64,000 nucleotides of DNA, from positions 160,001 through 224,000 of the forward strand of contig JAZDNF010000001.1 in assembly GCA_043800255.1 (NCBI GenBank), read 5' to 3'. A program made the translations under genes and the position numbers. Positions within the stretch are counted from its first letter, which is position 1. Each line of letters starts with the position of its first letter. The notes under the pieces were generated by a model that saw only the letters and a list, made by a program, of their open reading frames with translations, had not been told where the DNA came from and did no database searches. Shown piece after piece: positions 31,102-35,807 of this stretch. This DNA is from Candidatus Altiarchaeota archaeon (GTDB lineage: Archaea > Altiarchaeota > Altiarchaeia > IMC4 > SCGC-AAA252-I15).

Positions 31102-31632
31102 ATGGTCGGCAAGAAGGTTGTTATGGTGGTTGCTCCATCTAACTTCAGGGATGAGGAGCTTCTGAAGCCCAAACGCGTCCTGGAGTCAGCCGGCGTGAGC
31201 GTCAGAATAGCGTCTAAGGGCGTTAAGGAGGCGACTGGGGTTCTCGGCGCAAGAGTTAAAGTTGATATGGACCTCTCAGAGGTGAACGTCGAAGACTACG
31301 ACGCCGTTGTGTTCATAGGCGGCGGAGGAGCTAGCGTCTACTTCAACGACGAAATAGCCTTAGACCTCGCACAGAAATCCTTTGACGCCGGCAAGGTGAC
31401 TGCCGCAATCTGCATCGCGCCTGTCATACTCGCCAACGCAGGCGTCCTAAAAGGCAGGAAAGCGACGTCTTGGACTTCTCCCACAGATAAGAGCACGGCC
31501 GACGCCTTGAAGGCCGGCGGCGCAAAATACGTGAGCAATGACGTCATCGTCGACGGTTTCATAGTGACCGCCAACGGCCCAGGCGCCGCCGAAGAATTCG
31601 GCAGAAAGCTCGTTCAACTGCTCTCAACCTGA
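31102..31632 (+). CDS. DJ-1/PfpI family protein
   Basis: FRDEE, FIGG.G, AAICIAP and TANGP motifs. ATG at 31102 follows GGAGGTGA; alternative start at 31027. Confidence 0.9.
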   Translation: MVGKKVVMVVAPSNFRDEELLKPKRVLESAGVSVRIASKGVKEATGVLGARVKVDMDLSEVNVEDYDAVVFIGGGGASVYFNDEIALDLAQKSFDAGKVTAAICIAPVILANAGVLKGRKATSWTSPTDKSTADALKAGGAKYVSNDVIVDGFIVTANGPGAAEEFGRKLVQLLST

Positions 31633-31635
31633 CCC

Positions 31636-31699
31636 GGCGTTGCCCAAAAAGTAAGCAAAAACGGGGACTTTTTGTGTAACTGAAAACTCTGCACAAAAA
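31636..31699 (+). repeat. Left terminal inverted repeat
   Basis: Ungapped match to the reverse complement of 35706-35769: 15/18 terminal bases, then ACTTTTTGTGTA 12/12 and TGCACAAAAA 10/10 at identical offsets. Confidence 0.8.
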
Positions 31700-31795
31700 G
31701 TCCAAGAGCTACACAAAAACTCGGAAATGTACAAAAATGGGCTTTGTTGCATTAGAGGTTGATATGAATTGTTGTTGCATTACGGTTGATACCTC

Positions 31796-32029
31796 CTAAA
31801 TAAAACCCTCAGACTTCAATAAAACTTTATTATCTAGTGGATAAGCTTCTATTATCTTTTTTCTTTCAGAATTTCGTGCCTCAATCTGTTGATTAGTCCA
31901 TTCTGCTTTACAATATTGGCATTTGTATTTACCCCTAGTTTTATTTCCACAGACGGGGCAAGGAATATATGGTCTAACCAATAAACCTGCTATATGCCTT
32001 CGCTTCCACCGTTCACTAAACTCACTCAT
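31796..32029 (-). CDS. Small zinc-ribbon protein
   Basis: CPVC...CQYC motif; co-oriented with dprA. Confidence 0.55.
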   Translation of the reverse strand: MSEFSERWKRRHIAGLLVRPYIPCPVCGNKTRGKYKCQYCKAEWTNQQIEARNSERKKIIEAYPLDNKVLLKSEGFI

Positions 32030-32051
32030 TTTTTAGTGCCTAAGTAATTAT

Positions 32052-32237
32052 CTAAAATTTACAGTATTTATCAAGAATTTTTCTGAAATTTTGTAGAGCT
32101 TCATCTTTATCGTTGAAAGGATGTTCATTTGTTGATATTATCCCTCCCTTTTCATCACATTCACAAATATTACCCCCACCCTTCTCACTTTGATAAATAT
32201 AAACCATAAATTTTTTTGATTTAAGTTTTTTAGCCAT
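32052..32237 (-). CDS. Hypothetical 61-aa protein
   Basis: Tightly spaced downstream of dprA on the same strand. Confidence 0.45.
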   Translation of the reverse strand: MAKKLKSKKFMVYIYQSEKGGGNICECDEKGGIISTNEHPFNDKDEALQNFRKILDKYCKF

Positions 32238-32248
32238 TTTACATCATC

Positions 32249-33163
32249 CTATAGTTTTTCTTGTAGAAAAGTTGGTTTTGGTTTATTAATCTCATCTAAT
32301 ACTGATCCTATATCCTCTATTTCTTTTACATTGTATTTTTCAACCGCCTCTTTTATCCCAAATATCGGTGTAAATCCTAATTCTAATTTTGGACAAAATA
32401 TTGGGATTCCTTGCTGGTGTGCAATTTTTAATTGAGTCATTGAACCTCCACTATTAGTAGTGGTGACAACGAGTATTGCATCAGATATTCCTGACGTAAT
32501 CCTGTTCCTAGCAAGTAACGACACTCTACCCCCCCTAAAATCAGGAGGATATTCGCTCAGCAATAAACCTCGCTTACTTATCTCATTAAATAAGTTCTCA
32601 TGTTCAAATGGATAGAAATTAAAAAATCCTGAACCAAGAACGCAAATAGTATTACCATCTACTTCTAAGGCCCCTGAATGAGCTTCAAAATCTATGCCCT
32701 CCGCACCACCACTCACTATCGTAATCCCTTTTTTTACAAATTCTTGACTTTTCTTGAACGCCCATAACTTGGCATTTGCATCCGATTTTCTACTTCCTAC
32801 AATTGCTATTTTCTTTGTATCAAGGAGGTTTAGATTCCCTTTAGTAAATAAAGTCAAAGGTGTATCAGGTAATAACTTGAGTGGAATCGGATATTCTTTT
32901 TGATATAATGGAATTATTTTAATATTGTATTCATGGCATTGAACGATAATTTTTTCATATTTTTCAGGAGGGGAATCTTTTAGTTGTATCCATTCTGTCA
33001 CCATATCCGGTTTAAGAATTTTTGTTTTCAACAAGTCGTCTTGAGATGCCAAAAACAATTCGTTTATGTCCGAAAATATATTTAACAATTTTATAATCTT
33101 TTTTGGCCCCAACCCCTTTACGTCTACTAATTTAAACCAATTTATAATTTCATCTTTATCCAT
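32249..33163 (-). CDS. dprA: DprA/Smf family DNA-processing protein
   Basis: SAM-like GLGPKK N-terminus; AIVGSR, IVSGGAEGID and RNRITSGIS motifs. ATG at 33163 follows GGAGGTGA. No C-terminal winged helix is apparent. Confidence 0.9.
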   Translation of the reverse strand: MDKDEIINWFKLVDVKGLGPKKIIKLLNIFSDINELFLASQDDLLKTKILKPDMVTEWIQLKDSPPEKYEKIIVQCHEYNIKIIPLYQKEYPIPLKLLPDTPLTLFTKGNLNLLDTKKIAIVGSRKSDANAKLWAFKKSQEFVKKGITIVSGGAEGIDFEAHSGALEVDGNTICVLGSGFFNFYPFEHENLFNEISKRGLLLSEYPPDFRGGRVSLLARNRITSGISDAILVVTTTNSGGSMTQLKIAHQQGIPIFCPKLELGFTPIFGIKEAVEKYNVKEIEDIGSVLDEINKPKPTFLQEKL

Positions 33164-33965: not shown

Positions 33966-35219
33966 ATGGCAATCTCGATAAATCCTTTTAACCCGAGGGA
34001 TCCCTCACCTGCCCCAGAGTTTGTTGGTAGAGCTGAGGAGCTTAAGTTGTTTCAGTACTCGCTAGACATGACTTGCAACCACTCACCAATGTCTATGGCA
34101 ATAATTGGTGGTAGAGGGATAGGTAAAACCTCTCTTCTTGTAAAATTTAATGACATAGCCAAATCGAGGGGTTCGTTGGTAATCCGAGTCAGTCTAATCG
34201 AGCCAGAAATTAAAGACGAGTTTTCAATATCCCAGTACATCTTCTATAATATACGCCAAGAGGCGTACGCACAACTTAAGATTAGAAATACCTCAGAAGA
34301 GGTACTTAATCATCTTTGGGACATCAAACTTACATTAGGCCCACGAAAGACCTCACTAACACAGCAAAATGAAGAGGATACTATGGAGAGGGTATCCATA
34401 ATCCAACCCCGCTTTAGAGATGTACTAAGTGACCTCTGGAGTCACCTGAAATCTCATTTTACATCCATAGTCATTCTTTTAGATGAGGCTGAAGCTTTGG
34501 ATAAAGTGCCAAATTCATTTTTATTTTTAAGAGAGATTTTTTCCCGACTTGGTGAAGAAAAGTACCCTATCATGGTTGTTTTATGTGGTAAACTAGACAT
34601 GTTGGACACTATGGGTGGTGAATTTTCTCCACTCCTCAGGTTTTTCCACCCTAGAAGACTACAAAATTTTAGTTTAGTTGAGTGTGAAGAATTAGTCAAA
34701 CGCAGATTAGAGGCCATCAATCTACGGATTGAGGATGGACTCGTCAAAACAATATATGAACAAACCGAGGGACATCCCTATGTTTTCATTTCTGCAATGC
34801 ATTTAATTATAAAGAACATTAACGATGAAGAAAATATCATTTCCCGAAAACATTATGAGGCAATTATGCCTATACTGATAGAGTACATAATATCTGGATT
34901 TTTTGAAACCCTCTATTCAAATCTTACCCCAAGAGCAAAAATCTTAATCGGAAAAATGGCTATCTTGGAGGGTGAATTATTCAACTTTAAGGATATTGTT
35001 CAGAAAGCTGCGGAGGACAGTAACAAGGTTTCACCATATATCTCTGAGATGGTTAGAAAGGGGTGTATCGAGAGAATTGAACGTGGGAAATACAAATTTT
35101 TCCACCTGCTTTTTAGAGCATATGTAAAGAAACGATATGAAATGCCAAATCACCCAGTAATTAATTTTATCAAACCAAATTCTCAAGAATCGCACACAAC
35201 ATTGCTAGGATGGATGTAG
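33966..35219 (+). CDS. P-loop ATPase (archaeal ATPase/AAA_16-like) with probable C-terminal winged helix
   Basis: INPF.P, FVGRAEEL, Walker A GGRGIGKTS, Walker B VILLDEAE, GHPY and RGKYKF.H.LF motifs. Confidence 0.85.
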   Translation: MAISINPFNPRDPSPAPEFVGRAEELKLFQYSLDMTCNHSPMSMAIIGGRGIGKTSLLVKFNDIAKSRGSLVIRVSLIEPEIKDEFSISQYIFYNIRQEAYAQLKIRNTSEEVLNHLWDIKLTLGPRKTSLTQQNEEDTMERVSIIQPRFRDVLSDLWSHLKSHFTSIVILLDEAEALDKVPNSFLFLREIFSRLGEEKYPIMVVLCGKLDMLDTMGGEFSPLLRFFHPRRLQNFSLVECEELVKRRLEAINLRIEDGLVKTIYEQTEGHPYVFISAMHLIIKNINDEENIISRKHYEAIMPILIEYIISGFFETLYSNLTPRAKILIGKMAILEGELFNFKDIVQKAAEDSNKVSPYISEMVRKGCIERIERGKYKFFHLLFRAYVKKRYEMPNHPVINFIKPNSQESHTTLLGWM

Positions 35220-35232
35220 ATAAATTTCAAAC

Positions 35233-35323
35233 GGCGGGGTGCCATAGCTAGGAAATTGGGACAACCCTAATCAAGTTGTTTATCGCGCCAGCGATTGCTG
35301 GGGTTCAAATCCCCACCCCGCCG
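35233..35323 (+). ncRNA. tRNA-like gene (type II, Ser-like) with a 9-nt anticodon loop
   Basis: GGCGGGG/CCCCGCC acceptor stem + G; D-stem CCA/TGG; ACAAC/GTTGT stem with loop CCTAATCAA; variable arm ATCGC-GCCA-GCGAT; TGGGG-TTCAAAT-CCCCA T-arm; GC-rich within AT-rich DNA. Confidence 0.75.
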
Positions 35324-35364
35324 CATTTTTACTATGATTAAATTCATGATTCAAGATTAATATA

Positions 35365-35512
35365 CTACGATTTTTGTCTTATCCAGCGTTCGATAGCTTG
35401 TTCTATAGCCTTTTCTACCCCCTTTTTTCATACCGAACCTTTCGGCTATCGCTTTTCTGAACTTTTGCTCAAGGTCGTCGCTTATGACTACGTTTATTCT
35501 GGTTGTGTTTTT
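35365..35512 (-). pseudogene. Degenerate ribbon-helix-helix (CopG-like) gene
   Basis: Translates as TTRINVVISDDLEQKFRKAIAERFGMKKG, frameshift in a G-run, then VEKAIEQAIERWIRQKS*; no intact start codon. Confidence 0.55.
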
Positions 35513-35705
35513 TAATAAATTTTAATAGCCTTTCTTTTGCCGTAAGAATATCATTATTCCTAACAAATGCCACATTATACTCACATACTGAGGTTATTCC
35601 AACTTCATCCGGGCAACCCTTCTCCCAACGGTTTGAATCTCCTTTAAAGACAAATGCAAACAAATCCATGTTTTTAATTTAGAACCAAAATCAAAGTATA
35701 TGTAG

Positions 35706-35769
35706 TTTTTGTGCAAAATTACTCCCTACACAAAAAGTACGCAAAATCGGCTACTTTATGAGCAAAGCC
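35706..35769 (-). repeat. Right terminal inverted repeat
   Basis: Reverse complement reads GGCTTTGCTCATAAAGTA...ACTTTTTGTGTA...TGCACAAAAA, matching the left end. Confidence 0.8.
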
Positions 35770-35807
35770 ACCTGACAGGTTTTATTATTCTAGTATAATC
35801 TTATACT

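Follow-up and report, generated by a model that had tools for sequence, protein, structure and literature searches.

A 4134-bp AT-rich island in the genome of a Candidatus Altiarchaeota archaeon is probably a non-autonomous cargo transposon, a "mobile insertion cassette" (MIC) of an IS903-related family whose transposases combine a SWIM zinc finger with a DDE domain (SWIM-DDE family). It lies in a window of 64,000 nucleotides (nt), positions 160,001-224,000 of the forward strand of contig JAZDNF010000001.1 (assembly GCA_043800255.1), to which all coordinates refer unless a contig or locus code is given. Below, G000 is the host genome of the window element, other G codes are comparison genomes, and L codes are loci with ends of the same family. 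The element proper occupies 31636-35769, and 31627-35778 is the same region with both copies of the target duplication. It sits between the stop codon of a DJ-1/PfpI family host gene (31027-31632, plus strand, 201 amino acids (aa), Pfam PF01965, 7.3e-41) and a host gene encoding a double zinc-ribbon protein (35808-36185, plus strand, 125 aa, Pfam DZR, 6e-15). The GC content is 0.29-0.42 inside the element versus 0.51-0.57 in the flanks.

MICs have inverted ends of the insertion sequence (IS) type and passenger genes, contain no transposase, and are presumed to be mobilised in trans by a cognate IS. The island shares its terminal 17-mer type and box spacing with autonomous elements (L035, L038, L105, L106 and the element of G063), and it carries passenger genes without a transposase. 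There is moderate support for a target duplication and an empty site, from a match in 7 of 9 positions and an 8-letter overhang, respectively.

The terminal inverted repeats (31636-31701, plus strand; 35704-35769, minus strand) are 66 bp long and imperfect, with 45 of 66 positions identical in register. Read inwards, the tips are GGCGTTGCCCAAAAAGTA from 31636 and GGCTTTGCTCATAAAGTA (reverse complement) from 35769; they match in 15 of 18 positions. Two further blocks are identical and have identical offsets in both ends: the 12-nt block ACTTTTTGTGTA at offset 32-43 (31667-31678, and 35727-35738 on the other strand) and the 10-nt block TGCACAAAAA at offset 55-64. Both termini have the IS903-type GGCTTTG start, in the form GGCTTTGCTC at the right end and GGCGTTGCCC at the left end. 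The general layout is a GGCKTT(GC) terminus, an 11-bp box at offset 7, and two further boxes. In the left repeat these are the terminal box GCCCAAAAAGT (offset 7), an inverted box (offset 32) and the direct box GCACAAAAAGT (offset 56); in the right repeat the terminal box GCTCATAAAGT, an inverted box and the direct box GCACAAAAACT have the same offsets. Since each end is internally palindromic, the ends can also be aligned as a 35-nt direct repeat (D3, 80%). The end-to-end local alignment scores 31, compared to the mean of 14.0 (sd 2.3, maximum 23) in 500 shuffles, none of which reaches 31. Elsewhere in the window, on both strands, no position reaches a 39/66 match to the ends. Thus the inverted ends with two perfect boxes, which the original prediction had described, withstand both controls.

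The flanking sequences, ACCTGACCC at 31627-31635 and ACCTGACAG at 35770-35778, match in 7 of 9 positions, and both mismatches adjoin the element. The left copy contains the TGA stop codon of the DJ-1 open reading frame (ORF), as had been claimed. A relative with about 95-96% identity in both flanks was found in a groundwater metagenome run stored as contigs (X1, the single sequencing run retrieved; it holds 0.05 of the query words). A 615-nt contig of this run (record 5) spans 35770-36376 at about 96% identity and carries eight extra letters, TGCTCTCA, before 35770. They are identical to 31619-31626 of the window, the 8 nt to the left of the left duplication copy; any particular 8-mer would match by chance with a probability of 1 in 65,536. 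The order predicted for an empty site is the DJ-1 gene end TGCTCTCA, a single ACCTGACAG, and then the promoter side of the zinc-ribbon gene GTTTTATT. The X1 junction would be this empty site, and the 8-letter overhang of one short contig lends it moderate support. In this form the junction that the original prediction proposed to look for, the DJ-1 gene joined to the zinc-ribbon gene through a single copy, has been seen.

X1 contigs align along both flanks, leaving the island uncovered, and the gap at 31636-35769 by itself is no evidence. Three further X1 pieces in or beside the island (records 2-4) are shorter than 50 nt and have unlike surroundings. Because the empty-site contig has the ACCTGACAG form, ACCTGACAG is likely to be the original target, and therefore the CC ending the left copy would represent either changed bases or bases of the element. 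Likewise, the element of G000 at C14 shows a 9/9 repeat only when two bases are allowed to stand between the repeat and GGCG. As the relative with about 95% identity seems to lack the insertion, the latter should be young relative to this divergence. G000 is the sole member of its genus among the genomes compared. Of 40 further genomes, only 2 had a match to the zinc-ribbon protein, with 31-37% identity. A search of JGI/ENA metagenome contigs with the same protein produced 38 loci and no close relative, the best segments (27-67% identity) being short generic zinc ribbons.

Ends of the same type occur at many other loci. The 17-mer GGCKTTGCYYMWAAAGT has five sites in G000, namely the two island ends, C9:18720, C14:54352 and C1:22927, and is also present in 5 other genomes among 49 genomes of the order, whereas the reversed pattern has no sites in all 49 genomes. 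The 17-mer type of the left terminal repeat recurs at C9:18720 and C14:54352 and in relatives. A two-box end pattern was found at 25 loci in contigs from one genome per species, with about 0.5 expected by chance according to our arithmetic. The hosts include Altiarchaeota, Nanohaloarchaeota, Hadarchaeota, Micrarchaeota, Halobacteria, Thermoplasmatota, Dehalococcoidia and Acidobacteriota. The elements comprise miniatures of 68-105 bp (L050, L032, L030, and L116 of 86 bp), transposase-less cargo elements of 0.9-2.3 kb (L041, L045, L047, L048, L049), and autonomous elements of 2.8-9.1 kb (L035, L038, L106, L105). Perfect 9-bp duplications of unrelated sequences flank 7 of the 13 pairs outside G000 (L035, L038, L045, L049, L106, L105, L116); L041 and L047 have imperfect ones (8/9 and 6/9). 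Copies with other cargo and, outside G000, autonomous partners, both sought by the original prediction, thus exist.

Seven of eight mapped pairs (L038, L035, L106, L041, L045, L047, L049; the exception is L048) consist of two types of ends. Type one has boxes at offsets 7, 25 and 45, all direct, and type two has a direct box at offset 7 and inverted boxes at 32 and 52. The same arrangement is seen by eye in L105. In the 86-bp miniature L116, the two ends share boxes: the inner ones of one end serve as the inverted ones of its counterpart. This miniature (7970-8055), with the perfect 9-bp duplication CAATTAACA, lies inside a contig classed as viral; two scans of viral contigs yielded it and nothing else. 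The 9146-bp autonomous element L105 (G024:C26, 3047-12192) is flanked by the perfect 9-bp duplication CCTAACGAC. Its box sequences are different (GCTAAT..), and a second family end, without a partner, lies 400 bp within the element. The box sequence seems to vary between sub-families, while the GGCTTTGC termini are kept.

Two more transposase-less elements of the family reside in G000. One, C14:54352-56200, has a single ORF encoding a secreted-type protein of 572 aa with a cysteine-rich tail. The other, C9:~16227-18720, has a degenerate left end and four ORFs, for an SDH-type serine protease, a DUF3467 protein and two unknown proteins. At C1:22927-22990, a solo end whose three boxes are all direct (GCTCCTAAAGT, GCTCATAAAGT, GCTCAGAAAGT) has no partner end nearby. 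A trpB-like ORF follows about 120 nt downstream, and the end may be a remnant that is now in a promoter region. The family was also considered as the main source of AT-rich islands in G000, and this was rejected, as only three of the 58 islands with a length of 800 bp or more have its ends.

The autonomous elements identify the candidate partner transposase. Among 92 ORFs within 4.5 kb inside 28 ends, three match Pfam DDE_Tnp_1 (L035, L036, L038), and further transposases are found inside L105 and L106. These proteins have 397-429 aa, are 48-61% identical across Nanohaloarchaeota, Hadarchaeota and Dehalococcoidia, and consist of an N-terminal CxCx(n)CxH SWIM zinc finger and an IS5-type DDE domain. 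Among NCBIfam models they score best against NF033579 (IS5 family), at 111-133 bits and below its cut-off of 140. In tblastn, the catalytic half matches genes annotated as "IS5-like element IS903B family transposase" at 22% identity (E 4e-5) and Acinetobacter IS5-family transposases at 26% (E about 1e-9, best 2e-10). The end of a plasmid IS903B copy, read inwards, is GGCTTTGTTGAATAAATC, and the Acinetobacter IS5-family element begins with GGCTTTGTTGCATAAAGC. In the Paracoccus table passages of PMC3281130, all eight elements of the IS5/IS903 group make 9-bp repeats. A search for IS903 in E. coli genomes with the Acinetobacter IS DNA gave no match. The kinship with IS903 that had been proposed from the ends and the 9-bp duplications is supported, but the partner is a distinct, larger relative rather than a classical 1-kb IS903.

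The partner family is very large. Of 8000 candidates scored, at least 6785 clusters reach E ≤ 1e-20, and their sources name them only as "transposase". A profile of three members finds a full-length transposase in 4 of the 49 genomes of the order: G013 and G006 (both from the same family as G000), G024 and G048. In G063 (Blastocatellia), the end GGCTTTGCCCAAAAAGTAAC, identical to the window left tip in 16 of 17 positions, is located 68 nt before a SWIM-DDE-type gene that carries one internal stop. A search of an open-access library found no description of an archaeal transposase family combining SWIM and IS5-type domains; on this limited basis, which is no proof of its being unpublished, the family seems to be undescribed.

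None of the six cargo ORFs of the island matches transposase or integrase families of Pfam and NCBIfam. A profile search for a remnant of the cognate transposase in six frames with all filters off gives at best -1.2 bits. The original description of an AT-rich interior free of transposase and integrase genes is therefore accurate. The profile search found no cognate SWIM-DDE transposase in G000 either; the assembly is 93% complete, so that absence means "not found in assembly". Because of this, the window copy is probably stranded now. Hence, of the proposal that the element is non-autonomous and mobilised in trans, the first part agrees with the lack of a transposase in both the element and the assembly, and for the second no partner was seen in G000. 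The only PF01609 transposase of G000 is an ordinary IS5-family protein of 288 aa (C9:38567-39433; NF033579, 180.6 bits; family profile E 2e-7). Its element, C9:38473-39436 (L052 1073-2036), is about 960 bp long and has 38-nt imperfect inverted repeats. This transposase was rejected as a mobiliser: the repeats (GATTCTAATAGCTTC...) are unlike the GGCKTTGC ends, and the protein is 19% identical to the SWIM-DDE proteins. The IS5 element itself sits in another AT-rich stretch, beside a subtilase-like gene.

Several observations weigh against the interpretation of the island as a trans-mobilised cassette. The flanks match in 7 and not in 9 of 9 positions, and a 7-bp duplication with two extra element bases fits equally well, as the mismatches abut the left end. 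The X1 contig with the DJ-1 gene ends 56 nt before the junction, and no contig is listed as the joint. The left and right ends differ at 21 of 66 positions. Moreover, they are both alike (7 direct, 32 inverted, 56 direct), and the two-type arrangement is not seen. Because of the 21 differences and a box order unlike that of the other mapped pairs, recognition of the window copy by a transposase is open to doubt. A search of 61 genomes of the phylum for an autonomous element with boxes of the window's own type found none; matches to the box pattern with one mismatch are near background there, as the reversed control also matches. The sole autonomous element seen with this box type is the bacterial one of G063, whose transposase gene contains the stop. 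Four miniature or short pairs (L050, L032, L030, L048) have no duplication. Finally, the mobilisation of the window element in trans is something that we infer from its sequence.

One possible alternative is that the element arrived as an autonomous one with its own SWIM-DDE transposase, and that this gene was later lost in place, leaving a decayed copy. The ends and the duplication are imperfect, as in an old copy; the autonomous elements L038 and L105 have cargo on both sides of the transposase, and an internal deletion could leave a cargo-only element. However, no transposase remnant is present in any frame (the best score being the above -1.2 bits), and the relative with about 95% identity, which seems to be without the insertion, leaves little time for a clean loss. 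In addition, the perfect 9-bp duplications of the transposase-less elements L045 and L049, as well as the miniatures of 68-105 bp, show that transposase-less forms move. Overall, loss in place seems unlikely.

It is very improbable that the island is an integrated fragment of a plasmid or a virus, or that it was placed by a recombinase, with the direct repeat being the attachment core and the inverted repeats incidental. Such an origin would agree with AT-rich foreign DNA beside the 3' end of a gene and with the 35-nt direct-repeat alignment, but the island contains no integrase or recombinase, the junction has no tRNA or other usual attachment target, and the ends belong to a transposon family that makes 9-bp duplications at unrelated targets. 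Another explanation would be that the boxes are host regulatory operator arrays and that the island lies between two arrays by coincidence. Indeed, the ends are often about 13-23 nt from a TATA-like box, and the solo array at G000 C1:22927 is upstream of the trpB-like ORF. However, the TATA-like box is outside the duplication and hence is target DNA, and inverted pairs with exact 9-bp duplications of unrelated sequence, enclosing a dedicated transposase, occur in many phyla. A regulatory role of the boxes is thus extremely improbable as the explanation of the island.

For the non-autonomous cassette, the proposed course of events is as follows. The cognate transposase would be made elsewhere, by another element, a plasmid, a virus or an unassembled part of the genome. 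It would bind the boxes of the ends and cut at the GGC termini. The element would then be inserted by staggered 9-bp cleavage between the stop codon of the DJ-1 gene and the AT-rich promoter region of the zinc-ribbon gene.

The position of the ends suggests that the target may be chosen at a fixed distance from promoter-like boxes. Of 48 non-redundant outside flanks (loci L020-L121 and the G000 copies), 10 contain the octamer T[AT]TA[AT]A[AT][AT] with its start exactly 23 nt beyond the terminus, and in five more it starts at -25 or -24 (15 of 48 within -25 to -23), compared to at most two cases at any other offset examined. Since the TATA-like box is outside the duplication, it is a part of the target. 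The window copy does not have the octamer at 23 nt: its right flank contains an AT-rich run at -11 to -20, which is not the canonical offset, and its left flank has no TATA-like run. The AT-rich TATA-like run at 35779-35790 is situated between the right duplication and the ATG of the zinc-ribbon gene, about 20-30 nt before the latter.

The cargo includes a minus-strand operon with the gene order phosphoribosyltransferase (PRTase; 33737-33156), DprA-like protein (33199-32249), 61-aa ORF, 77-aa ORF. The PRTase (33156-33737, 193 aa) is a ShosT/ComF-type protein and a putative toxin, and its gene overlaps the DprA-like gene by 44 nt. It matches the PADLOC profiles PsyrT (3.1e-11) and ShosT (9.8e-7), as do 60 of its 62 aligned family members (both profiles). 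The protein is diverged: three relatives share words with it among 5.8 billion clusters, and a full HMMER scan gives 317 representatives at E ≤ 1e-3. It has no significant match among PDB sequences. The best full-length PDB folds for its AlphaFold (AF2) model (pLDDT 94.5) are ShosT (8zvd, TMq 0.59; 8zvc, 0.60) and H. pylori ComF (7p0h, 0.62). The second protein (32249-33199, minus strand, 316 aa), a ShosA-like member of the DprA/SLOG family and a putative antitoxin, matches PADLOC ShosA (PDLC03961) at 2.1e-54 over positions 17-300 of the 303-position profile, and Pfam DNA_processg_A at 1.4e-54. Its match to the ShosA chain of PDB 9vzo has E 1.9e-25, and canonical DprA chains score alike.

In PMC11961720, ShosT is described as a toxin of the PRTase/pyrophosphatase type that interferes with purine metabolism, and ShosA as an antitoxin that binds DNA. 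Given these functions and the profile and fold matches, the pair may be a ShosTA-like toxin-antitoxin or defence module, for which "defence-type cargo", the wording of the original prediction, is a fair description. Such a payload would stabilise or defend its carrier. The wording does not extend to the whole family, whose cargo is mixed and not solely of the defence type: it includes a GNAT protein, a response regulator, a MoxR ATPase and many unknown proteins. Still, defence cargo recurs. Beside its transposase, L105 (G024) has a restriction-modification pair and PDC-M30/M41-like genes, with an EcoRI-type methylase, a GmrSD/HNH nuclease and a PRTase among the products encoded, and a type IIG restriction-modification enzyme adjoins the Nanohaloarchaeota end L028.

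The remaining ORFs of the operon are a 61-aa ORF (32052-32237, minus strand) with no family matched in Pfam, PADLOC and NCBIfam, and, in the last position, a 77-aa CxxC...CxxC zinc-ribbon ORF (31796-32029, minus strand), whose only match is the sub-threshold Pfam Cys_rich_KTR (0.0024). Divergent from the operon is a gene for a STAND/AAA_16-type ATPase of 417 aa with a C-terminal AbiEi-like winged helix (33966-35219, plus strand). The ATPase matches Pfam AAA_16 (5.8e-10), AAA_22 (5.9e-9) and nSTAND1 (1.7e-4), and its residues 320-381 match PADLOC AbiEi (1.5e-7). A 66-aa ORF (35469-35669, minus strand) matches no family of Pfam and NCBIfam.

Downstream of the ATPase gene, ARAGORN predicts an intron-less tRNA-like gene of 92 nt with a long variable arm and the anticodon AAT (35233-35324, plus strand). 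Its GC content is 57.6% within the island of 33% GC, and its fold z-score is -3.35. It scores 34.0 bits against Rfam RF00005 (gathering threshold 29) in a focused search and was missed in a 5.4-kb search. The anticodon loop is atypical, with C at position 37 or else 9 nt in length, and the gene is unlike all 35 other tRNAs called by ARAGORN in G000, most of which contain introns. The cargo codons are rich in ATT and TTA; in particular, isoleucine is encoded by ATT in 44 of 106 cases in the cargo versus 14 of 120 in six neighbouring host genes. Conceivably, this might be a helper tRNA for the cargo. No tRNAs were found in 19 other family loci, which does not support a tRNA as family-wide cargo.

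More speculatively, all these elements could form an undescribed cross-domain superfamily, with SWIM-DDE transposases, IS903-like GGCTTTGC termini and two-type three-box ends, that homes to a set distance from TATA-like promoter boxes and exists in three grades: autonomous elements, cassettes and miniatures of 70-100 bp. The cassettes might then be a regular, trans-mobilised vehicle of archaeal defence and toxin-antitoxin modules, the tRNA-like gene of the window a helper suiting AT-rich codons, and two like ends sufficient for mobilisation. We put forward this extended scheme tentatively and find it rather more doubtful than convincing.

The new form is the transposase-less element carrying a ShosTA-type module, here on a simple transposon in an archaeon; MICs as a kind are already known from bacteria. 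To our knowledge, transposase-less cassettes have been described for a few bacterial IS families and are hardly documented in archaea. Such elements could provide a route for the spread of small defence or addiction modules among uncultured groundwater archaea. Spread between domains is conceivable as well, since partner transposases from DPANN archaea, Hadarchaeota and Dehalococcoidia share 48-61% identity. In this case the argument can be traced throughout, from the ends, the duplication and the probable empty site to autonomous partners in sister genera and to related cassettes that carry different genes. The three-box ends and the fixed distance to the TATA-like box could make the family a tractable model of target choice by IS5-type enzymes.

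The ShosTA-like pair resembles the E. coli ShosTA system in that the PRTase gene and then the DprA-like gene are adjacent and co-oriented in one operon, with the putative toxin first, and in the near full-length match to the ShosA profile and the match of the PRTase model to the ShosT fold. It differs in several respects. The window PRTase has 193 aa, its sequence matches to ShosT are weak, and the match to the ComF fold is equally good. The DprA-like protein fits canonical DprA about as well as ShosA in PDB. The host is archaeal, and the operon has two extra small ORFs downstream.

The family is similar to IS903 and IS903B in the GGCTTTG termini followed by an A/T-rich run, in the 9-bp duplications at family pairs, and in the DDE domain of the partner transposases, which is nearest to this group. 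In contrast to IS903, the partner transposases have about 400-430 aa and an extra N-terminal SWIM finger, and the elements are 0.07-9 kb long, usually with passenger genes. The family ends are about 66 bp long and contain three spaced 11-bp boxes, unlike the single repeat of 15-27 bp given in the passages of PMC3281130. According to the same passages, elements of the IS903 group are about 1.05 kb long and have one ORF, whereas the window element has 4134 bp, six cargo ORFs and no transposase.

The family also includes miniatures of 68-105 bp, in which it resembles miniature inverted-repeat transposable elements (MITEs). The closest parallel in organisation is MIC231 of the IS231 group from Bacillus cereus, with its inverted ends around passenger genes, lack of a transposase and presumed mobilisation in trans. 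Mobilisation of MIC231 in trans has reportedly been demonstrated at the bench. PMC2266710 discusses IS231 passenger genes and cites MIC231. The window element, whose movement in trans is deduced from sequence, differs from MIC231 in the IS family and in the domain of the host, and shares with it the basic design of a cargo cassette between the ends of a transposon.

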